61,987 nt of DNA from a virus (Duplodnaviria; Caudoviricetes): the IMG/VR virus record IMGVR_UViG_3300035494_000045, positions 1-61,987 of that record; one strand, 5' to 3'. The position numbers and the translations under genes are program-made. Each line of letters opens with the position of its first letter. The first letter of the stretch is position 1. The notes beneath the pieces were generated by a model. The model did no database searches. It was not told the origin of the DNA and saw only the letters and a list, made by a program, of their open reading frames with translations. This document shows positions 22,495 to 41,516 of this stretch, piece after piece.

Positions 22495-22821
22495 ATGGAA
22501 TTTGTGAAATATGTTGATGTGAGTCATCTACCAAATGACTTCCCCTACGTTCAAGTCATTGATGGATTCGACATCAAGGTGAATGATGTAACATTTAAAC
22601 TGTTGAGAGCAAATACGAGAAGTGAAATTATCTTTGCTTATATGAATGAGAATCTTCTTACGGATAACCCTTGGGATAATACATTGTTAGAAATCAAACA
22701 TAAGAGTCGTTTCGTAGTAGATTCTGAAGGTGTGATACAAAAACAACGTGATATTAAAGGTGAACTCACAATATCCATGTACAACAAAATTAAAGATTTG
22801 ATTTTGATGGAGCAGTTGTAA
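22495..22821 (+). CDS. small protein, MEEL-tail family (..DLILMEQL)
   Basis: SD; C-terminal motif. Confidence 0.7.
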   Translation: MEFVKYVDVSHLPNDFPYVQVIDGFDIKVNDVTFKLLRANTRSEIIFAYMNENLLTDNPWDNTLLEIKHKSRFVVDSEGVIQKQRDIKGELTISMYNKIKDLILMEQL

Positions 22822-22822
22822 A

Positions 22823-23059
22823 GTGATTGATACCAGAACGGTTTATAAAGAGTATGTAAATGGTCATCATATTGTATTGACTGAGGCATGTAGCACTCTT
22901 AGTGATTTGCGAGAGAAGTCGAGAGTAATCCACGTTTATTTTGACATCGAGGAGTTAAAATTCATCGGAACTTACTCAAACAATGGATGGTATGGTGGAT
23001 ATATCCCAAACAGTGTTAAAGATGCTTGCAAATCACTTTTATTATTGGAGGAATTATGA
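22823..23059 (+). CDS. small protein, MEEL-tail family (..SLLLLEEL)
   Basis: Coupled; C-terminal motif. Confidence 0.65.
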   Translation: MIDTRTVYKEYVNGHHIVLTEACSTLSDLREKSRVIHVYFDIEELKFIGTYSNNGWYGGYIPNSVKDACKSLLLLEEL

Positions 23060-23265
23060 ACAGTACAAATGAAAGAATTATTGATGGTGAATTTATATAT
23101 AATGTGAATAATGTTGGGCAGGTGTATGTTTACAAAATCATAGATGGGTCAGAAGTTTTCCAAGGATATGTTGACAAATATGATGGTACAATGGGATTTG
23201 CTGGTAAAGCTATGAAAACTCAAATCCAAAAAGCATATGCCTTGATAGATATTGAGGACATCTGA
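23056..23265 (+). CDS. small protein, weak MEEL-tail (..ALIDIEDI)
   Basis: ATGA overlap. Confidence 0.6.
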   Translation: MNSTNERIIDGEFIYNVNNVGQVYVYKIIDGSEVFQGYVDKYDGTMGFAGKAMKTQIQKAYALIDIEDI

Positions 23266-23269
23266 TTAT

Positions 23270-23593
23270 ATGTCAAATAATATCAAAAAGATTACACAAA
23301 TCGAAGGTTTTGGTGTGGATATGGAAGGTTCTATTTATGAATTATACGAGATAATATCAAAGGCGGGGAATAAGTTATATGTCTATGCGAATATTCTGGA
23401 TGAGACTGACCCAGAAAATGATACTTATGATAAAGCAACCGAACTAGACATTGATATTTATGATAAGTGCATACTCATCGCATTTGCTTATACTGGTGAG
23501 GTCTTCAAAGAACCAAAACATCCTTGGGGAGAAAAGTATACCCAGATGATGAAAAGGAATATAGAAGATTTGATTATGATGGAGCATTTATGA
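23270..23593 (+). CDS. small protein, MEEL-tail family (..DLIMMEHL)
   Basis: C-terminal motif. Confidence 0.65.
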   Translation: MSNNIKKITQIEGFGVDMEGSIYELYEIISKAGNKLYVYANILDETDPENDTYDKATELDIDIYDKCILIAFAYTGEVFKEPKHPWGEKYTQMMKRNIEDLIMMEHL

Positions 23594-23802
23594 AAGACAT
23601 CGAAGTAGTTATAATCGGGAAATATGTTATTTGCGTTTCCACTGAGTTAGCCACAGTCAATGAAATAGTTCATGGATGTACGGTATATAGAGGTAAAGTA
23701 ATTTTTAGTGGTACTAACAACGATGTTATATTTTGTGGCGAATGTGATGACAAAAATATCATTGATACTGCAATGAACTTATTACTAATGGAGCAAATAT
23801 AA
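23590..23802 (+). CDS. small protein, MEEL-tail family (..NLLLMEQI)
   Basis: ATGA overlap; C-terminal motif. Confidence 0.65.
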   Translation: MKDIEVVIIGKYVICVSTELATVNEIVHGCTVYRGKVIFSGTNNDVIFCGECDDKNIIDTAMNLLLMEQI

Positions 23803-24068
23803 TGTTTCTTAAAAGGCTAAGAGAAGAAACAATCCACATTGAACAAAACACTTACATCATATTGTATGATGGTTGGGAAAGAACCGATGAAATAAACTAC
23901 GCAGAAGTTCGGTGTGTGGAAAAGGATGGAAATTTCTTCTTATTTACGGACTCAATATTTAAACATAAGGTCATCAGGAGCGATACGAATTGTAATCGCA
24001 TACCATATCATCACTTAAAAGAGTTGACATCCTATGTAAAAGATGTGATAATGATGGAACAAATTTAA
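23802..24068 (+). CDS. small protein, MEEL-tail family (..DVIMMEQI)
   Basis: TAATG overlap; C-terminal motif. Confidence 0.65.
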   Translation: MFLKRLREETIHIEQNTYIILYDGWERTDEINYAEVRCVEKDGNFFLFTDSIFKHKVIRSDTNCNRIPYHHLKELTSYVKDVIMMEQI

Positions 24069-24086
24069 ACAAGGAGGAAACAAAAC

Positions 24087-25262
24087 ATGACATTCCAAAT
24101 TCCAACACTGAGACAAGCAAAGAAACTTGTTAAAACTAATGAAGCATTCATCTCAAAAGTTGAGAAAGTCAATGGTGCAAATATTCATCATTTTGATTAT
24201 CTACTGGCATCACCAAAAGACTTCACCGTAACACCATATGCGAAAGAACTTCGCGGCATTTGTTATGTGACAAGTTTCTTTGGATTATTTTCTGATGCTT
24301 GGCCTATGCTCCATAAATTCCACAATCTGAATGAGTGTGAGGGTTATATGGAGAAAGACTTAAAGGACTATATCCTTGATGATGTAGAAATCAAGGAAGA
24401 TGGTTCGGTTGTGTCATTTATTAAGGTGAAAGGTAAATGGATTGCGAAGTCACACTATAGTTTCGCATCATACCAAGCAACACAAGCACAAAAACTTCTA
24501 ACATCAGAGTTGGAGAATTTATTAGACCATTGCTTGGACTATGATATTGTTCCAATCTTTGAACTGGTTGGTAAAAACAATCGTGTGGTTGTTGAGTATG
24601 ATGATAAGATTTCATTGCGTCTTATCTCTGCACGATATAAAACATCTGGTAACTATCTTGGTTTGGGTGGTATTAGAAAAATTGCTCCCAATGCTGGTGT
24701 TGAGGTAGTTGAAAGTGTATATGAAGAAAAATACAACTGTATGCCAATGACACAAATCCTTGAACACTTTAAGAATCTTGCTGAAACTGTTGAGGATATT
24801 GAGGGGTGGGTTTTGACTTTATACAATCCGTATACCCAAGACTACAAAAAAGTTAAAATCAAAACAAAATGGTATTTAAATTTGCATGGCGTATTAACTG
24901 GTACATCGACATATGCCAATAACATCATTGAAATGGTTCTTAACAAAACCATTGATGATTTATTGACACAGATGGGATTGGAAGAAGGTGACAGTCGGTT
25001 GGAATGGATTAATGAGGTAACAGAGACGATTGATAAAATCTTCAATCATCAGTACCATCGCATCACTGACCTAATTGAAAAAGAAAATGGTCTATCCGAC
25101 AAGGAGTTTGCTGAAAAGTATAAGGAAGACCCGTACTTCACTGTCATTATGAGAGTTCGTAAAGGACATGACTTGACAACTAAGTTGAAAGAGTATATAC
25201 TTCACGCAACTAGACGAAAAGAAATGGCAGAACAATTTTTGGAGGATTTTAAAGATGAGTGA
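24087..25262 (+). CDS. T4 Rnl1-like RNA ligase
   Basis: ELRG, KFHNLNE, motif I KEDGS, FELVG..NRVVV.Y, EGWV, KIKT.WY. Confidence 0.88.
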   Translation: MTFQIPTLRQAKKLVKTNEAFISKVEKVNGANIHHFDYLLASPKDFTVTPYAKELRGICYVTSFFGLFSDAWPMLHKFHNLNECEGYMEKDLKDYILDDVEIKEDGSVVSFIKVKGKWIAKSHYSFASYQATQAQKLLTSELENLLDHCLDYDIVPIFELVGKNNRVVVEYDDKISLRLISARYKTSGNYLGLGGIRKIAPNAGVEVVESVYEEKYNCMPMTQILEHFKNLAETVEDIEGWVLTLYNPYTQDYKKVKIKTKWYLNLHGVLTGTSTYANNIIEMVLNKTIDDLLTQMGLEEGDSRLEWINEVTETIDKIFNHQYHRITDLIEKENGLSDKEFAEKYKEDPYFTVIMRVRKGHDLTTKLKEYILHATRRKEMAEQFLEDFKDE

Positions 25263-26349
25263 AAAACTAACACCAATTGAATGGATGTACACACATAAGC
25301 CAATCTTGAGAGAATATTATGACTATGAGGGAGACCCTTGTGAGCATGGCGAAGATGCAGTTACACCATCACCATATCATTTGGAAGGAAGCGTCTGGAC
25401 ACATACCATGATGGTCTATTCGCATATGAATGCTATGTATGATGGTAAGGGTTTCGACTATATGTTATTGGCGGCTCTATTGCATGATATTGGTAAGATG
25501 GAATGTCGAGGGGAAGATGAGCATGGAAACATTCGATTCAAAGGTCATGAGGGATATTCTTTCTTCCGTTCTGTTGATGCGGTTAAAGAGTATATCAATC
25601 ATCGATATGATGGGTATACTGATGACTATACCAAAGCAGTATTATTTGCTATCGCCAATCATGGTATCTTCATGCACAATAAGAAGATGGCTAACAGCCC
25701 TGATTCAATCAAAAAAGCATTTGCACCATTTGATAAACTTTCCTTGGAATTGCTACATGATTTGATGGTTGCTGATAAGAAAGGACGCATTGTGGCTCAC
25801 GATGTCAAATTTAACGCACCAGAACAATCACCACTGGACGTTCTCATGGATTGTGAGTATGATGCACCTGTTGAGGTTAAAGAGCCATATACGAAGCGAG
25901 AATTGGTTATTATGGTCGGTCTTCCTGGTTCTGGTAAATCAACTTATATTAAGGAACACTTAGGCGACTATGCTGTTATCTCTCGTGATGCGATTATCAT
26001 GAAGAATTGTCCAACTGCTAAGTCATATTCAGAAGCATGGAAATCAGTTGACCAGAAAGAGATTGATAAAGAACTGATGCAACATGCTCAAAAAGTTTTC
26101 AAGACCGAGGACAAGATTGTTGTGGATATGACCAACCTTTCCAAGAAGTCTCGTAAGAAGTGGTTGGCATTGGCAAATCAGAATGATTTCTATACCAAGG
26201 TATATGTCATGGGGACATCATTAGCAACTTGTATTGATAGACGTTGGGATGGAAATAAAGCCATCAAATACGATATTATTGAAACAATGGCTAAGAAGTT
26301 CACATTTCCACTTGGTGATGAGTTCGACTTCGTGGATATTAAGTTATGA
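25255..26349 (+). CDS. HD phosphohydrolase plus polynucleotide kinase (P-loop) fusion
   Basis: HLEGSVWTHT, LLHDIGK, GLPGSGKST, VVD.TNL...R. Confidence 0.85.
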   Translation: MSEKLTPIEWMYTHKPILREYYDYEGDPCEHGEDAVTPSPYHLEGSVWTHTMMVYSHMNAMYDGKGFDYMLLAALLHDIGKMECRGEDEHGNIRFKGHEGYSFFRSVDAVKEYINHRYDGYTDDYTKAVLFAIANHGIFMHNKKMANSPDSIKKAFAPFDKLSLELLHDLMVADKKGRIVAHDVKFNAPEQSPLDVLMDCEYDAPVEVKEPYTKRELVIMVGLPGSGKSTYIKEHLGDYAVISRDAIIMKNCPTAKSYSEAWKSVDQKEIDKELMQHAQKVFKTEDKIVVDMTNLSKKSRKKWLALANQNDFYTKVYVMGTSLATCIDRRWDGNKAIKYDIIETMAKKFTFPLGDEFDFVDIKL

Positions 26350-26357
26350 CATAAATA
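26350..26357 (+). promoter_or_regulatory. late-promoter-like CATAAATA
   Basis: Near-consensus upstream of phoH. Confidence 0.4.
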
Positions 26358-26450
26358 CTTTTGTGAGATGTCAGTTATGATGTCTCACATTGTTTTATCT
26401 TTTTAACTTTAATAACACTTCCCTCATATTATTGAGGTAACGGAGTATAT

Positions 26451-27218
26451 ATGCCAGACTTGACTCGTGCTGAACGAAGAGAAATCAAACGTCAACGTAG
26501 AAGAGAGAAAAGAGCGCAAAGAAACCCATCAAGATACGAATCGGATACATTTGAGTCCATTCCAGTCATCCAAGACTATTCCCCTCCTAGACAATCATTC
26601 AACGTAGAAGCAAAAACAGAAGCACAGGGACACTATCTTTTAGCAATCGACACAAACACCATCACATTCGGCATCGGTTCTGCTGGTACTGGTAAAAGCC
26701 ATATTGCATTAGCAAAAGCGTGTGAATATTTGGAATCTAAGCGAGTAGACCGCATCATCCTAACCAGACCCATCCAAGATGCAGAGGATAACTCCCTTGG
26801 GACCCTTCCAGGTGACGTAAACGACAAGATAGCACCTTATCTTGCACCAGCAATGAACTTACTGTACAGATTCTTAGGAAAATCAAAAACAGAAGCCTAC
26901 ATCAGAACTGGTAAAATTGTTGGTCAGCCATTAGCAACCATGCGCGGACACACATTCGACAATTGTTTCATCATCCTAGACGAAGCACAAAACACCACAC
27001 CAAGTCAAATGAAGATGTTCTTGTCTCGTATTGGTAAGGGTTCTAAGATGGTTATTGATGGTGATGAGAAACAGTCAGACATTAAGGGAATATCTGGTTT
27101 AGCTGATGCGGTTAGAAGACTGCAAGGTTTACGTCAAATTGGTACAGTAGAATTTACGAGAGAAGACATCGTAAGAAATGACATCATCAGGTATATTTTA
27201 GAAAGGTACGAAAAGTAA
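26451..27218 (+). CDS. phoH: PhoH family ATPase
   Basis: G.AGTGKS, LTRP, LG.LPG, MRG.TF, LDEAQN, GD..QSD, DIVR. Confidence 0.93.
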   Translation: MPDLTRAERREIKRQRRREKRAQRNPSRYESDTFESIPVIQDYSPPRQSFNVEAKTEAQGHYLLAIDTNTITFGIGSAGTGKSHIALAKACEYLESKRVDRIILTRPIQDAEDNSLGTLPGDVNDKIAPYLAPAMNLLYRFLGKSKTEAYIRTGKIVGQPLATMRGHTFDNCFIILDEAQNTTPSQMKMFLSRIGKGSKMVIDGDEKQSDIKGISGLADAVRRLQGLRQIGTVEFTREDIVRNDIIRYILERYEK

Positions 27219-27227
27219 CTTAGGAAT

Positions 27228-27250
27228 GGGGAGCAACACGCTCCCTTTTC
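27228..27250 (+). terminator. rho-independent terminator
   Basis: GGGAGC-aacac-GCTCCC followed by TTTT. Confidence 0.65.
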
Positions 27251-27394
27251 TTTATCTAGGAATTGAAGAAACAGCCACACCAACAAACAACACAATCCCC
27301 AACATCATATTCTTAAATTTATTTGCAATCGTCTTAAACATCTGTTATAATCCTCTCTGTTATTGATAATATTCATTATATTTATGGAGGAAAA

Positions 27395-27886
27395 ATGAAA
27401 GCAATTTTAAAATATGTTGTACCACCACTATTGGTTTTGCCACTTTTGTGGTTTGGGTTACAAGAAGATGCGAATGTTTTATTGCAGATTGGTGCATACC
27501 TATGGTTGGTTATTATTTTCTTCGCATACGCTGTAGTAATTGGTATTAGTTTTGCATTTGTGCAATTGTTAGCAGATTCACTTGCGAAAGGCGATGGGGA
27601 TATATTCGACAGATTCAGAAACTTTACTGCACCACGCAACCCCCTTCAGTGGCTGTGGACATTTTTAATCACAAGTTTATTCACATTGATAATGGTGTAT
27701 AATGGTCATGCAATCTTGGCATCATTCTATGGAGCAACTGCTATATTGGCTATTATGAGAATTCGCAAGATGAGAAGTCAATATGAACTGGCTTATATGT
27801 TGTATTCATCTGGTCAGAGAGGAAGAGAGATTATGAAAAAACTTAGAGAACAATTTGGTGAAAAACACAATGGAGGTGCAGAGTGA
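27395..27886 (+). CDS. membrane protein
   Basis: GGAGG SD, 3-4 TM segments. Confidence 0.7.
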   Translation: MKAILKYVVPPLLVLPLLWFGLQEDANVLLQIGAYLWLVIIFFAYAVVIGISFAFVQLLADSLAKGDGDIFDRFRNFTAPRNPLQWLWTFLITSLFTLIMVYNGHAILASFYGATAILAIMRIRKMRSQYELAYMLYSSGQRGREIMKKLREQFGEKHNGGAE

Positions 27887-28506
27887 AAAAGATTTTAGTT
27901 GAAAAATATAGACCAAAGAGCATTTCTGATTATGTCTTCCAAAATAAGGACAATGAGAGAAAGATTAAGAAATGGCTAAAGGAAAAGAATATCCCTCATG
28001 TCTTGATGTCTGGAACACCTGGTACTGGCAAGACAACCATGAGTCGAATCCTTGTTAATGAACTTGGAATCGACAATACGGATGTTCTAATGATGAACGC
28101 TTCTCTTATGCGACTAGAAGACATTAGGGGGAAAGTTGTGCCATTTGTTGGGAAGAGTGCATTCAGCCCATTCAAGGTTGTACAACTTGAGGAATGTCTT
28201 CACGAAGATGAGGTTGTAATGATTGGAAATTTGGATGATAGACAACAAAAAAGAATAGGCGATTTGCCAATTGGTGAAAAGTTTGCAATCCCATCAATTA
28301 ACATGGAAACTGGTGAACTTGAAAACGATACAGGCGAAGTTATTGTTGTGAAAGAGGACGAATTGTATGAAATTGAACTTGTCGATGGGAGAACAATAAA
28401 AGTCACAGAAGACCATCCGATGTTAGTGTTACTCAATGGGAAGATTGTTGAGAAAACCATAAAGGACGGGTTATGTGCGGACGATGAACTGATTGTTGTT
28501 TGGTGA
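27883..28506 (+). CDS. clamp loader ATPase (gp44/RFC-S) N-half fused to split intein N fragment
   Basis: VEKYRP, GTPGTGKTT, NAS, LEE then CL intein start at 28195; block B I.VTEDHP. Confidence 0.9.
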   Translation: MKKILVEKYRPKSISDYVFQNKDNERKIKKWLKEKNIPHVLMSGTPGTGKTTMSRILVNELGIDNTDVLMMNASLMRLEDIRGKVVPFVGKSAFSPFKVVQLEECLHEDEVVMIGNLDDRQQKRIGDLPIGEKFAIPSINMETGELENDTGEVIVVKEDELYEIELVDGRTIKVTEDHPMLVLLNGKIVEKTIKDGLCADDELIVVW

Positions 28507-28511
28507 TTAAT

Positions 28512-29852
28512 ATGTTTTACATATCGAGAAAAACTGGAAGAAAATTTTCTAATAAGCAAGCATATCTGAATCATTTGAGGAAGGTTTACGGTAAATCAGT
28601 TAGAGGCGATGTGGGAATATATTTATACGAAACACAGACCGAAACCATCCCGAAGTGTAAAATATGTAAAGAGCGTGATTGCGAATATATAAGCATTTTT
28701 GAAGGGTTTTCTGATATGTGTAACAATCGTTCTTGTAGAGAACATTCCAGAGAAATCCTATCCAAAAGCAGGAAATCTGCTATTGATTTTGCAAATATGG
28801 TTTACACAAAAACAACAGAAAGCGATTTCTTAGAAGAGTGTCCAATATGCGATGTGTTATTTGATACAAGAAAAACATTGTCATCTTCAACATGCGGAAG
28901 TCATTACTGTCGTTCACAATTTAAAGCTGGTTATCAGAGTAAAGGAGTAATGTCTAACAAATTCGTCAGTTTAGAATATTATAAGAAACTATTTGAGACT
29001 AATTCTAATAAAATAGCAACATCGCATGTAATCGGATACTGTAAAAACAACAAACATCTTGAGCGGTGCGTCCCCAGAAACATGAAGGTTACATTAACCG
29101 CAACCAACATAGAATTTATATTCTTTTGTCCGATTACTGAGATGTGTATACCGTTTGTCTCTGGCGGACGGGCATTATACTCGCATGTAAAATCGTTGGG
29201 GGTGGATTATGTGAGCTATTTGAAGGAATATTGCCCTCAAGCGGTTTGTGAATGTAAATTATGTGGAGCGGTGACAAGATACAGTATGAGTGGCCTCCAA
29301 CCTAGCCAGAAGCCATTTTGCTCGTCAGACCACTACTATCAACACATGACTGAAAACCCTCACATGTATACGAGTGAGGAGAAAAGGAATAATATGTCAC
29401 ATACGATGAGGGGTAAAATTGAATCTGGAGATTTTACCCCTCATGTCAATAAATGGGCTAATGTTGACAAAATGGTAGTGAATGGTATAAAATATAGAAG
29501 CTCGTGGGAAGTTCTATTTCATAAGATTTACCCAAACTTGGAATATGAAACATTACGCATTCCGTATTTTTGTAGCAAATATAATAAAGATAGAGTGTAT
29601 ATTGTTGATTTCGTTGACAATATTAATAAGATAGTCTATGAAGTTAAACCATTTTCTCACACAAAAAGACAAAACTTCATAGACAAATCGATTGCGGCTG
29701 AAGCATGGTGTGAAAGTAACGGTTACAAGTATGTTGTCATTAGTGAGGATTGGTTTGTTGAGGAATTAGATGCACTGAACAACTTAAAAGAAATAAGCGA
29801 AAGGGAATCTCTGGCAATAAAACAATTTAGGAGGATTTATGCAAGGCGTTAA
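28512..29852 (+). mobile_element. free-standing homing endonuclease (Zn-finger repeats plus TnsA-like PD-(D/E)XK domain)
   Basis: Several CxxC pairs; YRSSWE, YE.LRIPY, YIVDF, YEVKP; sits between the intein halves. Confidence 0.8.
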
Positions 29853-30570: not shown

Positions 30571-30587
30571 CATGGAGGAGATATAAC

Positions 30588-31200: not shown

Positions 31201-31202
31201 CA

Positions 31203-31427: not shown

Positions 31428-31436
31428 GGAGGATGT

Positions 31437-31685: not shown

Positions 31686-31686
31686 C

Positions 31687-32146: not shown

Positions 32147-32148
32147 AA

Positions 32149-33363: not shown

Positions 33364-33364
33364 T

Positions 33365-33670
33365 ATGATTGGAGCACATAAACATCATGTGTGGATTAAT
33401 AGTGGATTGTGCGAACAAAGTGGAGAATGTTTAGGAGTTATACAAATCGGGTATGATGAAAAAATTTCTGAGGGTGATATTCTATATCTTATAGACAATT
33501 TCACCAAAAGTATTCGCGTCATTCTACCAGAGAATCAAAAGCATCACCCAAGACCATACCTACACGAAGTTTGTATATACAAGTGGGAAACTAAAGAATT
33601 TTTGGGATGTATGCCAAAGGATGACGTACAAAAATTCTGCGAAATGCTTGCAATCCAAAACCAACTTTAA
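33365..33670 (+). CDS. small protein, weak MEEL-tail (..MLAIQNQL)
   Basis: Last gene of the cluster. Confidence 0.6.
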   Translation: MIGAHKHHVWINSGLCEQSGECLGVIQIGYDEKISEGDILYLIDNFTKSIRVILPENQKHHPRPYLHEVCIYKWETKEFLGCMPKDDVQKFCEMLAIQNQL

Positions 33671-33671
33671 C

Positions 33672-33701
33672 TTGACAAACAAAACTCTCCTAATATACAA
33701 T
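33672..33701 (+). promoter_or_regulatory. sigma70-like promoter
   Basis: TTGACA-18-TACAAT. Confidence 0.55.
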
Positions 33702-33729
33702 CTCCATATTGAACTGATATGGAGAAACT

Positions 33730-34395
33730 ATGAACATCAAACCAACCAATGACATTGATAAATTATATGATTCTGGGCTTATACACCACACTGACGGGAC
33801 TTTTGAGTGTCCAGTGTGTCATAAGACCTATAAAAGAGAAAAACCTGCCATAGAGCATTTAAATGCGCGTGATTGTTTCTCTCTTCTTGATATGTTCAAA
33901 GACACCACGAATGAGATGAAAGGTTATGCCTTGTATAAGACATTAGTAACATCTGTCAATCCAAAAGCCAGAGCATCAATAAACATCTTCAGAAAGAGCA
34001 AATATTACAACTCGGTGATGAGATATATTTCGTTCGCATCAATCCATGAACTAAAAGAACGCTCAGATGATTACCTAGACTGGCTAATCCAATACAAAAA
34101 CTTTAGTAATATCAATGGTTTATTATCAAATGCCATTAAGGAATCATTCTTGAGAGAGTTTAGATTATTCTTGCAGAAGCATGGTGATGTGATGATTGAT
34201 TCTTCTAAGTTCTATGATAGGTATGCTGAAGACTTGTTGAATGATGCTGACTTCTTCATCAGGAGCATAGAGAAAGGTCACATATGGATTGGGTATTTTA
34301 ATGATGTTGACTTTCCAATTGAGGACGTGTATAATGGCTTACCAATCGATTACCAAATTCGGTTTGATAAAATCTTGGATGCGATTGAGAAATGA
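33730..34395 (+). CDS. C2H2-like zinc-finger hypothetical protein
   Basis: FECPVCHKTY...H....C. Confidence 0.7.
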   Translation: MNIKPTNDIDKLYDSGLIHHTDGTFECPVCHKTYKREKPAIEHLNARDCFSLLDMFKDTTNEMKGYALYKTLVTSVNPKARASINIFRKSKYYNSVMRYISFASIHELKERSDDYLDWLIQYKNFSNINGLLSNAIKESFLREFRLFLQKHGDVMIDSSKFYDRYAEDLLNDADFFIRSIEKGHIWIGYFNDVDFPIEDVYNGLPIDYQIRFDKILDAIEK

Positions 34396-34419
34396 TTATT
34401 TTTAAGAAAGGAGGACAAT

Positions 34420-34653
34420 ATGAGAACTTATCATGTATGTGCAAATGTAAACTTAGCATCACATGGCTATAGCAATAAAACCATTGACTTTTTGTATGAA
34501 ACAAAAATCCTAATTAATGACGGTACACTGTGGAAGATTAAAAAGGAAGCAGTATTAAAGGCATTGCCGAATAGTGTATGGGGAGAAGATGTGCTATCAA
34601 CTTTTATTAACGAAGGTGTAACCGTTACATCTTTAACAATTGTAAACCCATAA
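34420..34653 (+). CDS. hypothetical protein
   Basis: AAGGAGG SD. Confidence 0.6.
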   Translation: MRTYHVCANVNLASHGYSNKTIDFLYETKILINDGTLWKIKKEAVLKALPNSVWGEDVLSTFINEGVTVTSLTIVNP

Positions 34654-34683
34654 GAACTTTTATTTTAAGAAAGGAGGAAATGT

Positions 34684-35103
34684 ATGAAGAAATTATTACT
34701 AATCGCAGTGGCACTTGGTTCTTTGCTTGTGATGTCTGGTTGTCAGACTGACGCAACAAAGGCATCGCATAACTTATCCAAAGCCGCAGAGATGTTTGAG
34801 CTAGACCGTCGTATTGTTTTTTATAATGGTATCACTGGTGAGTATATGCTAACCATTACTGGAAAATGTTCAGTTGAAACTTCAAGTAACCGATTGGCTG
34901 TAACTTGCAAGGAACCTAACAACGAGTACCGTAAGCATTATCTGGGTTTGTCTGATAACGTCACCTATATGTCAGAACAGTTGACGACAGCAAAGGTTAG
35001 CACGTACCACACGCGAATTATCTTCAAACCTCAATCAATCGTGCCAGATTTTGATATGCGCGGTGATATGAATGAGTTGAAAGATGCTGTAACGCCAGAC
35101 TAA
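34684..35103 (+). CDS. phage lipoprotein
   Basis: Lipobox MSGC; RRIVFYNGIT, KHYLGLSDNV. Confidence 0.8.
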   Translation: MKKLLLIAVALGSLLVMSGCQTDATKASHNLSKAAEMFELDRRIVFYNGITGEYMLTITGKCSVETSSNRLAVTCKEPNNEYRKHYLGLSDNVTYMSEQLTTAKVSTYHTRIIFKPQSIVPDFDMRGDMNELKDAVTPD

Positions 35104-35341
35104 TGTGAGGTTGATTGATGATTGAACGATACTATTTTGTTTATGGGTATGCCGAGAAGTCTGAAACCGAAAAACAAGTACGGATGGAAATGTGGAGAAT
35201 AATTTCCATTCGGAGCTTCTTTCCAAATCATATTGGCGCAAGCAAATATGCAGTAGAGGTTTTAACCGATTCTGCTAGAAATTCTGGCTTTTGTGGCAAT
35301 GTTATGATTACATCATTCAGCAAGTTATAGTGGAAGGTGAT

Positions 35342-35704
35342 ATGGAAAAGAAAAAAGAACCAACGATTGAAGAAGAGATTATGATGCTGAAGCAGATGAA
35401 AGACTTCGGCTTACTTTCATCAATCCTACGTAAGTTAAACGATAAAATTGATAAGTTACATGAGGAGTTTGATGATTATGACCCAAACCAGGACATCGAC
35501 ATCAATCATGGTTTTGAATCACTGAGGAATGATATTGACACATTGACAAGTGACTTAGAACTAACATCAGGTAATCTAAACATTCTTGAAGGTAGAGTGG
35601 ATGATTGTGAGTCAAATATCTCACGATTTGATGAAGAACTAACAAGACTGGAAGGTGAGATTGAAGAAATTAAACCATTTGTTGATGCGTTTAACGAAAT
35701 GTGA
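35342..35704 (+). CDS. coiled-coil hypothetical protein
   Basis: Heptad repeats. Confidence 0.6.
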   Translation: MEKKKEPTIEEEIMMLKQMKDFGLLSSILRKLNDKIDKLHEEFDDYDPNQDIDINHGFESLRNDIDTLTSDLELTSGNLNILEGRVDDCESNISRFDEELTRLEGEIEEIKPFVDAFNEM

Positions 35705-35716
35705 GGAGATATTATT

Positions 35717-36196
35717 ATGAACTGTACAAATATTAAAGTTAGAGCAATAGACGCTCAAAGAATCATCAATCACAGGTTATTGACCGAAGAACTTCTATAT
35801 AAAGCGGTCTGGCATCGATATGCTCATGAATACATGGAACAGGATATGTTATTTGGATTATATAGTAAGCATAGAACACTAGAAGAAGCGTATCGCTATT
35901 TGATATTATCTGTCAAAGACACCGACCAATTCATCGAGGTGTTGGATATTTTTCATAAAAACTCTGCCGTATTGGAACGTATTGAGCGTTTGAAGATTTT
36001 ATTGGATATGTCGAAAAAATCTTCACAGTATGGTGATAAGCTCATCACATTGGATAGTAAAGATTCGATGATAGTGTTTGGCACTATCAGTCATGAAGAA
36101 GATGAAATGATTTGCGAATACGAAAAATATGTCGAAAATGATAAAAATCCAGTTTCGATTTTTGACTTCAGTGAATCCTATGTGGGTTACGAGTAA
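35717..36196 (+). CDS. hypothetical protein
   Basis: GAGGAG SD. Confidence 0.6.
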   Translation: MNCTNIKVRAIDAQRIINHRLLTEELLYKAVWHRYAHEYMEQDMLFGLYSKHRTLEEAYRYLILSVKDTDQFIEVLDIFHKNSAVLERIERLKILLDMSKKSSQYGDKLITLDSKDSMIVFGTISHEEDEMICEYEKYVENDKNPVSIFDFSESYVGYE

Positions 36197-36207
36197 GGAC
36201 TTTTAAT

Positions 36208-36663
36208 ATGCCTAGAGTTAGAAAGAAAACCATAACACATCAAAGAGACAAGTTGAGATTTTGTAAGAATTTGGGGTATCGTGGCATTACTGATTATGGT
36301 GAGCGAGAATATATCTGTGATGTGGTTAATATGCCGTTTGGATTGACTAAGATTGATGGTATTCCAAAAGTCATTCAAACTGGATTGGTCTCTGAGCCTT
36401 TGGATATTAGAGAGTCTGGATTTGTGGTGAAAGAAGCATACTTGCACGATTCTGGACATTACATTAATGCAATCTCTGATTTAAATTCAAACACTGTCAT
36501 GTTTACTGCTGATGGTAGTCATTATATCATTCGACCAAGAAGTTTCGCCACCATGATGAATGCTGGTGTTCGTGACCTATATAATGATGGAAAGAATGGT
36601 AAAAGTTTTGATGAGTGTTGGGAAGAGGTGTCTGACTATAGAAAACTGATGAGAGATTTGTAA
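36208..36663 (+). CDS. hypothetical protein, weak MEEL-tail (..RKLMRDL)
   Basis: AAGGA SD. Confidence 0.6.
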   Translation: MPRVRKKTITHQRDKLRFCKNLGYRGITDYGEREYICDVVNMPFGLTKIDGIPKVIQTGLVSEPLDIRESGFVVKEAYLHDSGHYINAISDLNSNTVMFTADGSHYIIRPRSFATMMNAGVRDLYNDGKNGKSFDECWEEVSDYRKLMRDL

Positions 36664-36664
36664 C

Positions 36665-36931
36665 ATGGAATCATTCAACAAATACCCATATGTGGCAGAT
36701 ACCATAGAAGGCGCGTTCGGTATTATTGATATGGTCAGGAAAGGAAATGAATTTAAAATTATATCCAAGCCATTGGATTATGATTCTGTTATATTCATGC
36801 TTCCTCTTGAGCTTGAGGTGTACGTTGAGCGAGAGATTGGAGCAATCCATATCGAAACTTATCAAATTCGTGTCCCCCATGCCATATTTAATGATATAAT
36901 TGAATATGAGAGGAATATTGAGGATTTGTGA
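36665..36931 (+). CDS. small protein, weak MEEL-tail (..RNIEDL)
   Basis: Coupled. Confidence 0.55.
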   Translation: MESFNKYPYVADTIEGAFGIIDMVRKGNEFKIISKPLDYDSVIFMLPLELEVYVEREIGAIHIETYQIRVPHAIFNDIIEYERNIEDL

Positions 36932-36947
36932 GGAGAGGAGAGTTACT

Positions 36948-37166
36948 ATGGGAGAAAACAAAATTGAACCTTGGTCTGCTGAACGTGAGATTGAGGATGA
37001 GCTAGAAAATCTAATGGATTGTTTTGATGATATACTGGTAGAAGCAGAAATTGAAGAGCCAGCAGGGAGAGGGGCTGGCTTTGCTTTACATTTTGACCAC
37101 GAAGAACTTAAAAAGTACATTATTGAGTTTGCTGATAAGTATGCCCAATTGCGAGAACTGATGTGA
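36948..37166 (+). CDS. small acidic protein (..AQLRELM)
   Basis: GAGGAG SD. Confidence 0.55.
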   Translation: MGENKIEPWSAEREIEDELENLMDCFDDILVEAEIEEPAGRGAGFALHFDHEELKKYIIEFADKYAQLRELM

Positions 37167-37176
37167 TGGAGGAATT

Positions 37177-37413
37177 GTGACAACCGAATTTCATATCAAA
37201 AAGACGGTGGTAAGGAAATTATCGTTTTCTGATATAATTTCCATATTATATAACAAAGAAATTGATGATTACTGGATTCAAATAAAATTGGAAAATGGTA
37301 GATTACACTCTTTTTGGTATACGAGTAACCACATTAATGGTGATATATCGTTTATTTTGGTTGATGAGGCAAAAGAAATTATTGATTCTGTGATTCAAAT
37401 GGAGGAACTATGA
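37177..37413 (+). CDS. small protein, MEEL-tail family (..SVIQMEEL)
   Basis: C-terminal motif. Confidence 0.65.
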   Translation: MTTEFHIKKTVVRKLSFSDIISILYNKEIDDYWIQIKLENGRLHSFWYTSNHINGDISFILVDEAKEIIDSVIQMEEL

Positions 37414-37997
37414 GAAGTATATTCGACGTTGACATCGATACCACCTCGAAGACTGATAAGAAACAATATGGTATCCCTGCCATGATTTATAATGAAGACC
37501 AAGAGAGAATCAACCCACATCCTAGTGGTGTCTATCTTGAAGAAGTACCAATCGATAAATTAACTGGTTTGTGTTCGTTCGACTATAAGTATGGAGACGA
37601 GAAAGGATTCATGAAAGTTGATATTCTTCATAACACAGTCTATGATATTTTTAAATCAAAAAAAGAAGTTTTGGAAGCATCGGAGAATGATATTGATTGG
37701 TCGATATTGGAAGATAGGAAAGTTGTGGAATCATTACCACATATTGCCAAACACTATGACATCATCCAGAAGTTGAAGCCAAAGTCTGTTGAAGACTTAG
37801 CCGATGTTTTGGCTCTAATCAGACCTGGTAAGTCAAATCTGATTGATTCGTATATTCAAAACAAAGAGCAGACCAGAAGAAATCTGTATAAGAGACCAAA
37901 GACTGGAATGTATTTTAAAAAGTCTCATGCCATATCGTATGCACTGATGATAAAGACACTCATCTATAAGAAGCATCAGGCTATGATTTGTTGGTAA
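37410..37997 (+). CDS. miniature DNA polymerase III alpha (family C)-like protein
   Basis: DVDID, HPSGV, GFMKVDIL, LALIRPG, FKKSHA.SYA in DnaE order. Confidence 0.8.
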   Translation: MRSIFDVDIDTTSKTDKKQYGIPAMIYNEDQERINPHPSGVYLEEVPIDKLTGLCSFDYKYGDEKGFMKVDILHNTVYDIFKSKKEVLEASENDIDWSILEDRKVVESLPHIAKHYDIIQKLKPKSVEDLADVLALIRPGKSNLIDSYIQNKEQTRRNLYKRPKTGMYFKKSHAISYALMIKTLIYKKHQAMICW

Positions 37998-38295
37998 ACT
38001 TAAACACTTTCTTGTTTGGTTTATTTGTGCTCAGTCTATGAGTTGATGACTTAATGTTCTTCTTATTGACCATTACTGGTGGATTCATTGGGTAATGACC
38101 AAAATAGAGAGCCTTATAGACACTAAACCTCATATGTGAGAAATACATCTTATATAGAATGACAGCCAGTGAAAGTTCTGGGTCATCATTCTGAGACATA
38201 TCGAAAACTGTTACGTGCTTGGTTGAGACATAATCAATAACCCCAATGTATGTATAGTTTTCTGTCTCAATCACATCCAACAAATTATCTTGCAC
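37981..38295 (-). CDS. hypothetical protein on the opposite strand
   Basis: AAGGA SD; late-promoter-like CATAAATA at 38333-38340 (minus strand). Confidence 0.65.
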   Translation of the reverse strand: MQDNLLDVIETENYTYIGVIDYVSTKHVTVFDMSQNDDPELSLAVILYKMYFSHMRFSVYKALYFGHYPMNPPVMVNKKNIKSSTHRLSTNKPNKKVFKFTNKS

Positions 38296-38352
38296 TTCTT
38301 ATCCTTTTTTATTATAATCTTCTATATGTCAGTATTTATGGGAGGAAATGAT

Positions 38353-38871
38353 ATGAATGTGGAGGAGAAAGCTCGTAACTTATTCAGAATCATGCATGAT
38401 AATAATTTAACCCATTGGATGAGTGAGAGTGAGTTCAACGATGCATGCTACTCAATATCAACGGATAATTTTGTGAATGTTAGTACGAGACCGAAAGAGG
38501 AGGGCAAATACTTTAGGCTCAGAACATTATCTCCCACAGTACGCACAATTGGAGAAGCAGAACATGCCCTTGTGTATGGTAATTGTCACTACAATTTACT
38601 GAGAGAGTTCGTCGGGAGAGATTCTGGATATTATGTTAGACTTGATTGGTTATCGGATGTTCACGAAGGTGCAATTTTCATGAGCCTTGATATTGTCTGT
38701 GGAATTATCTTCAATGGAACACCAGAAAGAGTTTGGCATTGGCACAAAAAAGTTTCAAACACCCAAGAATGGAGATTTAGAAACAGTATATTGAAGTATG
38801 CTATACTAAAGGCTAGAGAATCAATCAAGAGTGGTGAGTTTGAAACATTGTTAATGATGGAAGTATTGTGA
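38353..38871 (+). CDS. MEEL-tail family protein (..TLLMMEVL)
   Basis: GGAGG SD; C-terminal motif. Confidence 0.65.
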   Translation: MNVEEKARNLFRIMHDNNLTHWMSESEFNDACYSISTDNFVNVSTRPKEEGKYFRLRTLSPTVRTIGEAEHALVYGNCHYNLLREFVGRDSGYYVRLDWLSDVHEGAIFMSLDIVCGIIFNGTPERVWHWHKKVSNTQEWRFRNSILKYAILKARESIKSGEFETLLMMEVL

Positions 38872-39197
38872 TAAGAACTATGAGAACTGTCATATCATTA
38901 TATGATTCAAAAATAGATGGTTTGAGACAAATCGATGCCTTTGTTTGGTTAAGAAAATTCAAACTGGTCAATGAGAAAGATAAGCCAATCATTGAACGCA
39001 ATCTGGGTAATAGTCTAAAGCTTCCTTATTTGACCGATGATACCGTATACACCCTATACAAGTCATTAAATGGTGACTACAAAATCATACCACACCATGC
39101 CTTAATAGAAATGGGAATCGATGTGGTTGAGTTTGCAAACCTTGTGAGGGGTGGTGAAATTGATGTGGACATTGCTATTAATATGTTGAGGTTATGA
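38868..39197 (+). CDS. small protein, weak MEEL-tail (..IAINMLRL)
   Basis: GTGA overlap. Confidence 0.55.
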   Translation: MIRTMRTVISLYDSKIDGLRQIDAFVWLRKFKLVNEKDKPIIERNLGNSLKLPYLTDDTVYTLYKSLNGDYKIIPHHALIEMGIDVVEFANLVRGGEIDVDIAINMLRL

Positions 39198-39322
39198 ATA
39201 TGAGTGAATATACAGAAGATGTTGCTTACATGGAGCAACAAACAGAATCATATCAATACGATTATGGATAATTCTCATCAAAAATATATTCACACCTAGA
39301 TAGCATTTGCGATGGAGTTCGC

Positions 39323-39502
39323 ATGAAATGTGGAGAGAAATACGACTTTGACTATATAATAAATGAGTTTGAAAAGTTCAAAGAAATAAAAGAATCTCGT
39401 GGGAGTGATGGTGATAGGTTGGAAATCCTCCAAGAATTTATTGACATTGTTGAGGAATGCAAATATGATATTGACACTGCAATGTTGATGGAGGAATTGT
39501 GA
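39323..39502 (+). CDS. 59-aa MEEL-tail family protein (..TAMLMEEL), absent from ORF track
   Basis: GGAG SD; MKCGEKYDF...DIDTAMLMEEL. Confidence 0.6.
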   Translation: MKCGEKYDFDYIINEFEKFKEIKESRGSDGDRLEILQEFIDIVEECKYDIDTAMLMEEL

Positions 39503-39724
39503 GTGGATAATATTACGTTCGAGGTCGAGAAGATGCAATTCTATGATGAATATCGTCCAGTTGTGATTGTTATGAATAATGGTAGGAATTGGTTCAGAGC
39601 AATAAAATATGGCGATGGGGAGGTAAGTCGATATTTTGAGGATGAATACTATAAACCATTTGACAAAGATCCAGAAGATTTCTATGATACTATTAAAGAT
39701 TTGTTTATGATGGAGGAGATATGA
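39503..39724 (+). CDS. small protein, MEEL-tail family (..DLFMMEEI)
   Basis: C-terminal motif. Confidence 0.65.
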   Translation: MDNITFEVEKMQFYDEYRPVVIVMNNGRNWFRAIKYGDGEVSRYFEDEYYKPFDKDPEDFYDTIKDLFMMEEI

Positions 39725-40014
39725 TACTAGAAGTAATACAAATAAGAATAATCCGCACCAATGTCGTGGTAGGATATAGAATCGTATCGATGCCAACAAA
39801 ATCAGGGAGAACTACGATAGAGGAGAGCGAGAAGGTTGTTGAGGAGAGACCACTTGCAATCATAACCATTATTGGTTATGATTAAGTAAAGGTGTATTTG
39901 GATGAAGGAAAAATCAAAGTATATGCCAAAGACCCAAACTATGAACCTTCACCAATGTTCCATGATTCGATATTTGAGAGAGCGATGGACTATCTTATGA
40001 TGGAGGAAATATGA
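39721..40014 (+). pseudogene. MEEL-tail family gene with in-frame TAA at 39883-39885
   Basis: MILEVIQ...IGYD*VKVYL...DYLMMEEI* in one frame; ATGA overlaps at both ends. Confidence 0.7.
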
Positions 40015-40301
40015 CAACCCAAGAGCTATGCGAAACGGGAATAATAACATTCAGAACTATGCGTATAATGGAGTCTTCGGTATTCCATCCATCTGGTGGT
40101 GTAGGAGGACAGATGATGTCAACATCTGACGAGTTAATCCCTTTTGTAGAAGTGAATTATAAAGGAACAACATTGGTAACTTTCTTTTTTTGTGACAATA
40201 CAATGCAAATGGCTACGAGCATCATTCTTGTGCCAACCGAACTAAACATGGAAGAGATTTCCGATATGGCTCGTGATATACTGATGATGGAAGAAATTTA
40301 A
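40011..40301 (+). CDS. small protein, MEEL-tail family (..DILMMEEI)
   Basis: C-terminal motif. Confidence 0.65.
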   Translation: MTTQELCETGIITFRTMRIMESSVFHPSGGVGGQMMSTSDELIPFVEVNYKGTTLVTFFFCDNTMQMATSIILVPTELNMEEISDMARDILMMEEI

Positions 40302-40314
40302 AAGAGGAACATAA

Positions 40315-41271
40315 GTGAGCATCTTATCAAAACTATTTGAACAACTGAAGCAAGACATTGTGGTTAAGGCAAACTTAGGCTCAAGGGAGAACACTGGGTT
40401 TCATGCCATTCATTGCCCAATCTGCAATAAGACTGATAGAAAGACAGGTGGATTCAAGTTTGAAGATGATAAGATTGTATATCACTGCTTCAGGGGGTCT
40501 TGCGATGCATCCACAGTCTATGAGTTAGGTTCACCAATATTCAGAAAGTTCAAAAGACTCATGGAAGTTCTTGGTGTAACCATCCCTGTTGAGCTTAGAA
40601 TGGTTAAGTCATCCTTTCAGAAGAAGCTAGAAACACTTGATGAGAATCTTTATAAGAAACATTACTATAAGGATATTGAACCACTGGAAGGCTTTGTTCC
40701 ATTCAATAAAGGCACTGACCACTATCAAGAATATTGGAAAGAATACTTCACCAAACGAAGAACAGACTTCGATGATGTCCTGATTGGCAATTATGGCAAA
40801 TATAAGGGGTGCTGTGCCATCGAAATGAAGTTCTATGACAAAACCATAGGCTATCAGATTATAACGCAACGTGGTGACTATATAAAGCAATTTGGTGGTA
40901 ATACCAATTTGGTGTATATTCCAGAGCAAACCATATCAGAATTGGTTATATTGGTTGAGGGGTCATTTGATGCCAAATGCTTTCCAAACACAGTAGCCAT
41001 CATGCAAAGTAAAATAACACCAGAGCAAGCCTACCACTTAAGAGGAAAAGATGTTATAATGCTTCCTGATATGGATAATGGCAACCATTTTATTGAACAG
41101 TTTAAGGACTATGGGTGGAAAATATCCATTCCTGATTGGGGAGATTGTAAAGACCTTAATGAAGCTGTCATTAAATATGGTCTCGTTGTGGTTGCCGAAA
41201 TGATTATGGAGGGTATATGCACCGATAAGAAAAAGGCACAACTGCTGTTCAATATGAGAAGACGTTCATGA
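40315..41271 (+). CDS. DNA primase (gp61-like)
   Basis: Zn ribbon CPIC...YHCF...C; Toprim VEG.FDA, PD.D, KD.NEA. Confidence 0.85.
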   Translation: MSILSKLFEQLKQDIVVKANLGSRENTGFHAIHCPICNKTDRKTGGFKFEDDKIVYHCFRGSCDASTVYELGSPIFRKFKRLMEVLGVTIPVELRMVKSSFQKKLETLDENLYKKHYYKDIEPLEGFVPFNKGTDHYQEYWKEYFTKRRTDFDDVLIGNYGKYKGCCAIEMKFYDKTIGYQIITQRGDYIKQFGGNTNLVYIPEQTISELVILVEGSFDAKCFPNTVAIMQSKITPEQAYHLRGKDVIMLPDMDNGNHFIEQFKDYGWKISIPDWGDCKDLNEAVIKYGLVVVAEMIMEGICTDKKKAQLLFNMRRRS

Positions 41272-41516
41272 AAGGTGAGATTGTTGGGATTATAAAAGAA
41301 TGCTACATGGATACACTGCATAAAATCCAACCAAGAAGACACATTCATATCCTAGACTTAGCTGTAAAGTGTACAAAGGCTAAAATTCCGAGAGGTGATA
41401 TGATTGCTGAGTTGGATAGGATTGGACTAAGTGTTAATAGTGGTGGTTTAATACAACTACCTGAAGTGTTGTGTAATGAAGTACACGAAACATATATGAT
41501 GTTAGAGGAGATATAA
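41268..41516 (+). CDS. small protein, MEEL-tail family (..TYMMLEEI)
   Basis: Inserted between primase and helicase. Confidence 0.6.
   Translation: MKGEIVGIIKECYMDTLHKIQPRRHIHILDLAVKCTKAKIPRGDMIAELDRIGLSVNSGGLIQLPEVLCNEVHETYMMLEEI

Follow-up and report, generated by a model that had tools for sequence, protein, structure and literature searches.

The window analysed here is the whole of a 61,987-base contig from an uncultured T4-like myovirus (IMG/VR record IMGVR_UViG_3300035494_000045), and its subject is a C-terminal tail shared by small proteins encoded in three islands on the plus strand (22495–24068, 30988–33670 and 36208–41516). The tail is real and non-random, and known mechanisms explain it only in part. 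The best explanation overall, to which we assign a probability of about 0.5, is a two-layer tail that consists of an inherited helix module with a shared contact at its tip. The two-layer nature itself, with a C-terminal module at the amino-acid level overlapping a ribosome-binding site at the nucleotide level, is very probable. A shared contact as the function of the tail, either with a common partner or by self-association, is proposed tentatively, at somewhat less than even odds. Residues and codons are numbered backwards from the stop codon, −1 being the last residue, and h stands for a hydrophobic residue.

The curated list of the three islands contains thirty plus-strand open reading frames (ORFs), made up of two core genes (37410–37997 and 40315–41271, a primase-sized ORF that is taken as the primase core gene) and 28 small ORFs. 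The strong tail, h-[LM]-M-E-x-[LIM]-stop, ends eighteen of the small island ORFs; seventeen were matched by a regular expression, and the eighteenth is 37177–37413, which ends QMEEL. The C-terminus reads M-x-x-[LIM] in 21 of the 28 and [MLI]-x-x-[LIM] in 25. None of the 96 other ORFs of the contig, 63 on the plus strand outside the islands and 33 on the minus strand, ends in M-x-x-[LIM] (Fisher p = 4e-18). The first-pass annotation, made by a model from the letters and their translations, had proposed such an enrichment in advance as a check. The eighteen strong ends that it listed were all found at their stops on the plus strand, as was its observation that the compact minus-strand ORFs lack the motif: the strict six-residue pattern ends 0 of 33 of them, and 15 of 92 automatically tiled plus-strand ORFs, where the internal frequency of the pattern predicts 0.006. 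A profile built from the eighteen tails scores them at 15.3–27.0 bits, a range that is circular for those tails themselves, and its best non-terminal matches reach 16.7, 12.7 and 12.6 bits.

The nucleotide layer of the tail is an embedded Shine-Dalgarno site. Its GGAG(G) is contained in the codons ATG-GAG-GAR at −4 to −2, and in 13 of the 18 strong tails GGAG lies 5–11 nucleotides (nt) ahead of the next start codon, with one more tail carrying GAGGAG. In the arrays, a stop and the next start are as a rule −4 to +2 nt apart. GAG occupies −3 in 14 of the 18 strong tails, compared to 37% of the glutamate codons in long genes (p = 7.5e-4). ATA accounts for five of the eight isoleucine codons at −1, compared to 12% genome-wide; an ATGA overlap of stop and start requires this codon. 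The closest relative found, a 55.8-kb IMG/VR contig (G001) with syntenic gene order and a helicase identity of 63–65%, shows how the glutamates depend on the site. Ten plus-strand tails were read in G001, and the residues at −3/−2 are E-E or E-Q in three of them (33193, 33405 and 33838), all of which carry a GGAG serving the next gene. Three tails with a separate site past the stop have A-S, H-E and K-N at these positions, two at junctions without GGAG or a comparable G-rich run have R-E and A-K, one with a GAGGGG run that is one base out of register has R-G, and one with no coupled gene has N-N. The last gene of the second island of the window, which has no coupled follower, ends Q-N-Q-L. Since E-E tracks GGAG in G001 and is missing from this uncoupled end, the glutamates at −3/−2 are an imprint of the nucleotide level; they are imposed by the embedded Shine-Dalgarno site and carry no independent peptide signal.

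Such an imprint fits the general finding, given in the accessible part of the source, that the upstream member of an overlapping gene pair contains a Shine-Dalgarno motif at its 3′ end (PMC6728339). The arrays resemble the intragenic coupling described in that part of the source in their ATGA or TAATG overlaps or 1–2-nt gaps, and in the placement of GGAG(G) 5–11 nt before the start, and this coupling accounts for GAG-GAR at −3/−2. The arrays differ from it in that an 18-residue peptide module is kept where no embedded site exists, and the same part of the source does not describe a shared C-terminal peptide as a consequence of coupling (PMC6728339). In core genes of the window, the embedded site for the following gene lies in other frames, which translate as G-G, R-R or E-D. 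Minus-strand genes with embedded sites end in ..MEE, ..LED and ..KDE, with no hydrophobic frame.

If the whole tail were a by-product of the ribosome-binding site, it would represent a Shine-Dalgarno sequence, a spacer and a stop/start overlap translated in a fixed frame. The enrichment of GAG at −3 and of ATA at −1 agrees with this, as do tail-like reads in non-coding or very short frames (KLEEI-stop at 15620, DMEEI-stop at 30586, DMEKL-stop at 33733 and DVMEEL-stop at 37180). The 41-residue frame ending KLEEI at 15620 overlaps a tRNA-Arg gene and is not a gene. However, the by-product accounts for −3, −2 and part of −1 alone. Four strong tails (ending at 24068, 32427, 38871 and 40301) have GAA at −3 and no GGAG, and two of these precede a separate site; methionine occupies −4 in all nine tails lacking GAG; the core genes use other frames and the minus-strand ORFs lack the pattern; and G001 keeps the hydrophobic frame without E-E. 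The dinucleotide AT precedes GGAG at 11 of 52 non-tail starts on the plus strand and 6 of 32 on the minus strand, compared to 13 of 112 other plus-strand GGAG sites, which is not a clear enrichment. ATGGAG is thus not convincing as a special ribosome-binding site of the phage, and the four ghost tails are therefore treated as chance occurrences or remnants. As a full explanation of the tail, the by-product is largely refuted, and we consider it very improbable.

The amino-acid layer is visible in the distribution of information over codon positions. In the eighteen tails, nucleotide information sits at codon position 2 (T) of −7, −6, −5, −4 and −1, with variation at positions 1 and 3, as is characteristic of selection for hydrophobic residues. 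Conservation is not confined to the GGAGG nucleotides, a possibility raised by the first-pass annotation, and extends to position 2 of −7 to −4 and of −1. In the nine tails without GAG, the invariant methionine at −4 compares to an expected share of 9.5% among L/I/V/M/F (p = 6e-10); it is present in 12 of 16 tails with GAG, where 37% is expected among hydrophobic NNG codons (p = 0.002). Over 25 tails, whose bodies are 40–172 amino acids (aa) long, methionine is found at −4 in 21 and leucine or isoleucine at −1 in 24. The earlier claim of synonymous codon variation was borne out by comparison of the tail codons. Pairs of tails share the same codon about as often as genome usage predicts (observed versus expected: 5 vs 5.5 at −11, 9 vs 11.3 at −10, 10 vs 9.6 at −9, 4 vs 4.8 at −5 and 20 vs 20.1 at −1), with a modest excess at −7, −8 and −12. 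Because synonymous codons are shared at about the chance rate, the tails did not arise by recent copying of a single DNA segment.

The amino-acid layer is also kept between genomes and in the absence of coupling. The pattern [KR]-D-h-h-h-[ML]-x-x-[LI]-stop occurs in ten plus-strand ORFs of G001, with a related end on one minus-strand ORF, and the hydrophobic frame persists there where −3/−2 is not E-E. The protein encoded at 30988 and its G001 orthologue at 33193 (44% identity), the one clear orthologue pair with a strong tail, retain it through four synonymous codon differences, and by our own count on the alignment 11 of 17 residues are identical in the tail end, compared to about 20 of 53 in the body. 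As described previously in the first-pass annotation, the motif is kept at 24068, 31427 and 40301, each of which precedes a gene with a separate Shine-Dalgarno site past the stop; the RNA ligase gene that follows 23802–24068 has AAGGAGGAA there, and the primase gene that follows 40011–40301 has AAGAGGAA. The claim that selection acts on the peptide thus holds for the hydrophobic frame, the methionine at −4 and the last residue, and it fails for E-E, which is set by the Shine-Dalgarno site.

Conservation at the amino-acid level and the location of the motif exactly at the stop, in arrays coupled as tightly as −4 to +2 nt, would also suit a nascent peptide that acts in cis, its last residues modulating termination from within the ribosome tunnel and promoting re-initiation at the next cistron. 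However, the tail is kept where the next gene lies 13–18 nt off and has its own site (24068 and 40301), and likewise in G001. The core family described below keeps the module, which spans about 18 residues, in eight related loci. We know of no arrest or termination peptide that resembles the tail, though no search aimed at one was made, and a cis-acting role is highly unlikely.

In three regions that differ in content between relatives, nearly every gene has a tail at its 3′ boundary, as would suit a DNA-level boundary element that provides recombination homology between gene ends for cassette shuffling. This reading has next to no probability, since the nucleotide identity of the tails is no higher than their shared amino acids and codon usage predict, the third codon positions are free, and the eighteen junctions have no common RNA or DNA hairpin. 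A common RNA fold at these junctions was rejected on z-scores of −2.4 to +1.8. A promoter or terminator function was likewise rejected: the region 21700–41600 contains 93 promoter-like and 10 terminator-like sites, compared to 85.5 and 8.5 in shuffled sequences. The −10-like hexamer TATGAT lies inside some tails, and its −35 partners are weak. Promoter-stem-loop cassettes (PeSL) are stated, in the accessible parts of two sources, to mediate modular shuffling in the hyperplastic regions of T4-type genomes (PMC2839356, PMC4122927). The tails resemble PeSL in recurring at gene boundaries, in islands of variable small ORFan genes between the core genes of a T4-like genome. Unlike PeSL, which as far as these parts describe them are conserved promoter-terminator nucleotide motifs, the tails lie within coding sequence and are conserved as amino acids, with free synonymous sites and no common hairpin. 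A unit reminiscent of PeSL cassettes is present at the end of the second island (33672–33733), where a hairpin with a 9-base-pair stem comes after a strong promoter-like site (TTGACA, 18 nt, TACAAT), and the 3′ arm of this hairpin carries the GGAG of gene 33730.

The conserved segment extends beyond the terminal motif. In the profile of 25 tails, preferences reach back to −18, with D/E at −12 in 15 tails, A/I/V/L at −10 in 20, K/R in nine and E/D in ten at −9, and D in seven and T/S/N in nine at −8. On a helical wheel, the hydrophobic positions −18, −14, −11/−10, −7 and −4 form one stripe, −5 and −1 are about 120 degrees off this main stripe, and −6 is on a third side. An AlphaFold2 model of the 30988 family, calculated from a four-sequence alignment, has four strands and a helix at residues 55–69 of 70 (predicted local distance difference test score (pLDDT) 83, predicted template modelling score (pTM) 0.70). 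The single-sequence model of 39323–39499 has two helices, the second of which enters the tail (pLDDT 71, pTM 0.46). From the profile and the models, the tail is predicted to form the last part of a C-terminal helix of about 18 residues. A conserved helix of 17 residues is found in a subfamily of four proteins (30988, 31437 and two G001 genes). A position-specific helix of 18 residues points to an inherited common module.

A candidate for the older form of this module ends a small protein encoded next to the primase. A protein of 102–143 aa adjoins the primase gene upstream in all eight related loci in which this stretch was examined (G001, L003, L007, L008, L009, L015, L016 and L018); in L015 it lies upstream of the place of the primase, and no intact primase ORF was found there. 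The end of the small-protein gene overlaps the primase start in L007, L008, L009, L016 and L018. The member of the family in the window is 38868–39197, to which the others are 13–29% identical. The family ends are in the same register as the tails, with D at −8/−9, hydrophobic residues at −7 and −6, M/L/F at −4, and L/I last (KDAIMLASL, KDFLAFMSL, SDMLVMVNI, NDMITMVLL, NQIISMVML and IAINMLRL). We infer that they represent an older form of the tail. The expanded set of the window begins directly beside the 38868–39197 gene. Co-folding of the primase (eight-row alignment) with the 109-residue tail family (eight rows) gave a score of 0.01, with the mark at 0.32; it was run without controls and speaks neither for nor against binding. 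A similar end is also present on a non-homologous protein encoded upstream of the clamp loader in three Alishewanella-like loci, but the relaxed pattern used there holds little information, and it is not relied on.

Based on these observations, an origin of the tail and a role for its two faces can be proposed. The helix would be one inherited module, the older form of which ends the small protein upstream of the primase in related phages. It may have spread by duplication through the three hyperplastic islands, with the bodies diverging or being replaced past recognition. The methionine at −4 belongs to the main hydrophobic stripe (−18, −14, −11/−10, −7 and −4) and would pack on the body of its own protein. 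Residues −5 and −1, together with the free carboxylate, would form a second hydrophobic ridge at the tip, which is the best candidate for a contact common to all the proteins. The near-invariant methionine at −4, the terminal leucine or isoleucine, and the exact end even in tails without an embedded site argue for a common contact. The ordered-helix model and the failure to find a reader among the scanned proteins argue for a structural role.

A structural role alone would suffice if the small proteins are a fast-diverging paralogous family, in which tandem duplicates of a small beta-plus-helix gene share no partner, the structural helix is the slowest-evolving part, and the embedded ribosome-binding site puts a further constraint on its end. 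The genes stand in tandem arrays with contents that differ between relatives: by our own count, the islands of the window hold 6, 10 and about 12 small ORFs and those of G001 hold 0, 5 and 5. The four-member subfamily with the 17-residue helix is still recognisable, orthologues upstream of the primase are so divergent that paralogues would soon become undetectable, and in the 30988 model the tail belongs to an ordered helix within a compact fold. Dipeptides of the form [DN]-G are doubled in the island proteins (1.45% vs 0.71–0.77%, p = 0.002), and a hairpin-like pattern, defined after viewing the data, is about 4.5 times as frequent in them (p = 3e-6 and 2e-4). Part of the set possibly diverged from a common beta-rich ancestor, and to label the proteins unrelated probably goes too far, although no relationship between the bodies can be detected. 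On the other hand, the identity of the residues at −4 and −1, beyond their hydrophobic class, is kept on bodies of very different length, at least one member (39323–39502) is predicted to be all-helical in a weak model, the bodies with tails removed show no similarity beyond the own members of each profile in 37 comparisons per profile, and the motif lies exactly at the stop in nine tails in which no embedded site fixes the register. We consider a paralogous family with no shared partner possible, but clearly short of an even chance.

Searches beyond the phage returned little for the bodies. None of the 27 small island proteins (and, in an earlier subset, none of ten) matches Pfam-A at E ≤ 0.01, and the three single-member PHROGs matches of the 27 (E of 0.007–0.01) are near chance level; one of these (E = 0.0068) is to a family named after the Shiga toxin B subunit. 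A homologue search with 30988–31197 recovered the query alone, and the profile of its four-member family, run against 1.84 billion representatives, recovered the four query proteins and a tandem-repeat protein of 729 aa, judged to be spurious. No small-protein match was obtained by phmmer among the ORFs of six more distant loci, and no usable feature match in an Atlas search. The 30988 model has no fold match at E ≤ 0.001 in the PDB or BFVD (best E 0.56 and 0.077). A search of IMG/VR with the DNA pattern for D-h-h-M-M-E-E-h-stop returned two loci of unrelated gene content, which is about the number expected by chance.

The contact at the tip might be an address. In this reading, more than twenty small early proteins that are otherwise unrelated, together with one conserved protein of the primase-helicase block, would share the methionine-rich helix tip as a C-terminal address tag. 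The free leucine or isoleucine carboxylate would be read by one partner, such as a replisome component, a protease or chaperone timing the removal of the proteins, or the proteins themselves, and two of the tag codons would also make up the ribosome-binding site for the gene that follows. We consider such an address possible, though less likely than not. It is close to the proposal of the first-pass annotation that the proteins are variable binders docking on one hub, of which the peptide-level selection survives. A scan of the 40 larger proteins gave no reader domain, and the models predict a tail that closes a well-ordered helix instead of forming a free peptide. The window has no protease gene, and two possible hubs (42927–43658 and 43725–44759) have no sequence match to solved structures at E ≤ 1. 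The tail is not known to resemble the ends of ssrA-type degrons.

C-terminal docking tails are known from the tip of SSB, from the clamp-binding tails of the T4 polymerase and of gp33 and gp55, and from the EEVD-type tails read by TPR domains. Like these, the tail is a short hydrophobic-acidic C-terminal motif on proteins that differ elsewhere, one of which is encoded in the replication block. It differs from them in that it is not known to fit any of their consensus motifs well, in its predicted ordered helix instead of a flexible tip, and in its far larger number of carriers, about 23 in 62 kb. The internal proteins of T4 share an N-terminal capsid-targeting sequence that is removed by the prohead protease. 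That sequence is likewise a short peptide shared by otherwise different small phage proteins, but the tag of the window is C-terminal and its genes lie among early and replication genes. Docking tails and the capsid-targeting sequence are functional analogies only, and none of their defining features was found for the tail. A narrow search of the open-access literature returned no description of a shared C-terminal motif on small phage proteins.

Several observations weigh against an inherited helix module with a shared contact at its tip. The expanded tail set is carried by two genomes, the window and G001, with two orthologue pairs between them. The strong set was picked by its own peptide motif, which makes the profile-based figures partly circular. 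Methionine has one codon, and selection on the ATG triplet is inseparable from selection on methionine. The helical reading comes from one good model, based on four sequences, and one weak model; the buried face is deduced from the helical wheel and not from coordinates; and the amphipathic moment is barely higher in the tails than in windows of the bodies (0.267 vs 0.223, p = 0.04). As regards common descent of the module, the profile reaching −18 in one register does not separate descent from convergence statistically, and the two models differ in secondary-structure class. The bodies without their last ten residues gave no significant BLASTP pair (none below E = 0.003 in a tiny database), phmmer detected the two window–G001 orthologue pairs and nothing more, and hhalign of two family profiles against 37 bodies recovered their own members alone. 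As regards a partner, a Pfam scan of the 40 larger proteins of the window identified no PDZ, TPR, Clp or Lon domain.

The expanded tail is restricted to a lineage comprising the two contigs and almost identical DNA from two other studies (runs X3 and X4). Contigs at least 99% identical to 22400–41600 were found in these runs, which are labelled as hydrocarbon and aquatic metagenomes, besides two possible source runs. Because the same stretch recurs in runs of further studies, the phage is not a one-off assembly. The matching contigs from sequencing runs are 99+% identical or short, and gave no comparison of variation between tail and body. Farther relatives, with helicase identities of 44–48%, include two Alishewanella phages and several metagenomic contigs.

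The small early genes of large phages are mostly ORFans, and a tag on about two dozen of them provides one experimental handle. A reader of the tag, if one exists, would disclose the hub that the fast-changing accessory proteins of the phage act through, and an address tag, if true, would be a new way to plug such proteins into one hub. The locus is also a clean natural example of dual coding, in which a ribosome-binding site fixes two residues of a peptide that are free where the site is not needed. Annotators who meet E-E repeatedly at C-termini in coupled operons should discount it before they claim a peptide motif. The individual ORFs of the islands are listed in Table 1.

Table 1 Tail-bearing and neighbouring small ORFs of the three islands, in order along the window
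Feature	Position	Strand	C-terminus	Remarks
Small ORF, 108 aa	22495..22821	+	KDLILMEQL, strong	GGAG inside tail; next start GTG 22823
Small ORF, 78 aa	22823..23059	+	KSLLLLEEL, strong	Leu at −4; ATGA overlap with next start
Small ORF, 69 aa	23056..23265	+	ALIDIEDI, weak	Ile at −4
Small ORF, 107 aa	23270..23593	+	EDLIMMEHL, strong	
Small ORF, 70 aa	23590..23802	+	MNLLLMEQI, strong	
Small ORF, 88 aa	23802..24068	+	KDVIMMEQI, strong	GAA codon, no GGAG
Small ORF, 70 aa	30988..31200	+	RALIMMEEL, strong	G001 orthologue, 44% identity
Small ORF, 74 aa	31203..31427	+	FMLDMMIL	M-x-x-L, no E-E; GGAGGA of next gene past stop
Small ORF, 82 aa	31437..31685	+	RDLLLMEEL, strong	Distant paralogue of 30988–31200
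Small ORF, 76 aa	31687..31917	+	EINFMREL	M-x-x-L
Small ORF, 75 aa	31919..32146	+	MTLMMMEEI, strong	
Small ORF, 92 aa	32149..32427	+	QLYLMMEEL, strong	Codons GAA GAA, no GGAG
Small ORF, 118 aa	32424..32780	+	EFFSLMEEM, strong	
Small ORF, 123 aa	32780..33151	+	SAYSMVMI	M-x-x-I; −3/−2 codons GGTGAT
Small ORF, 71 aa	33148..33363	+	KNLYLMECI, strong	
Last ORF of island 2, 101 aa	33365..33670	+	EMLAIQNQL, degenerate	No coupled follower, no E-E
Small ORF, 151 aa	36208..36663	+	YRKLMRDL	M-x-x-L
Small ORF, 88 aa	36665..36931	+	YERNIEDL, weak	Ile at −4
Small ORF, 72 aa	36948..37166	+	YAQLRELM, degenerate	
Small ORF, 78 aa	37177..37413	+	DSVIQMEEL, strong	
ORF, 172 aa	38353..38871	+	ETLLMMEVL, strong	ATG start, alternative TTG 38290; GAA codon
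Conserved-family member, 109 aa	38868..39197	+	IAINMLRL	Family adjoins primase upstream
Small ORF, 59 aa	39323..39502	+	DTAMLMEEL, strong	Modelled as two helices, low to moderate confidence
Small ORF, 73 aa	39503..39724	+	KDLFMMEEI, strong	
Small ORF, 40 aa	39892..40014	+	MDYLMMEEI, strong	GTG start
Small ORF, 96 aa	40011..40301	+	RDILMMEEI, strong	Codons GAA GAA
Small ORF, 82 aa	41268..41516	+	ETYMMLEEI, strong	Between primase and helicase; Leu at −4

Two of the listed ORFs contain repeats. The ORF at 33148–33363 opens with a tandem 12-nt repeat (33148–33171, encoding MSDD MSDD), and a landfill metagenome contig (run X6) that is about 90% alike (10 differences in 148 aligned positions) has 12 letters fewer at 33140. 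The ORF at 40011–40301 holds a second, internal tail-like stretch, TELNMEEI (40236–40259), 13 residues ahead of the terminal tail; the sequence suggests a duplication of the gene end or a past extension by read-through. Two tRNA genes, for Arg (TCT) and with a CAT anticodon, are located at 15528–15603 and 17479–17552, respectively. The CAT-anticodon tRNA could read ATG or, if modified, ATA, both of which are unusually frequent in the tails (ATG at −4/−5 and ATA at −1).

The genes of the phage are on the plus strand up to about 49 kb and on the minus strand past that. They encode a ribonucleotide reductase, a thymidylate synthase, a dCMP deaminase, an RNase H-like 5′–3′ exonuclease, an RNA ligase, an HD/kinase protein and PhoH, and also an RFC-type clamp loader, a DnaB-type helicase (41520–42866) and a gp15-like tail-sheath stabiliser.

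The plus-strand core gene at 37410–37997, which is located within the third island, encodes 195 aa that match only the finger domain of the alpha subunit of DNA polymerase III, and its G001 counterpart is 75% identical. A polymerase of separate pieces may be involved. A conserved minus-strand gene of 104 aa (37981–38295) overlaps the end of 37410–37997 by 17 nt; it is in place in eight of the nine related loci listed, and none was seen in L017.

The gene for the RFC-type clamp loader (27883–30570) is interrupted in the window, and its homologue in G001 is a single ORF of 308 aa. The pieces are an N-terminal part with an intein splicing domain (27883–28506) and a C-terminal AAA part (29839–30570), between which a 450-aa ORF with a TnsA-like endonuclease domain (28500–29852) lies in another frame. 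From the sequence, these frame changes do not fit a simple in-frame intein. A second TnsA-like endonuclease N-terminal domain is encoded by a free-standing ORF of 147 aa (45292–45735), and this ORF and 28500–29852 are possibly homing-type endonucleases. G001 has an ORF of 719 aa between its clamp-loader genes (30621–32780, corresponding to 2025–4184 of L001) that the window lacks, which is another difference in content between the two genomes at a core-gene boundary.

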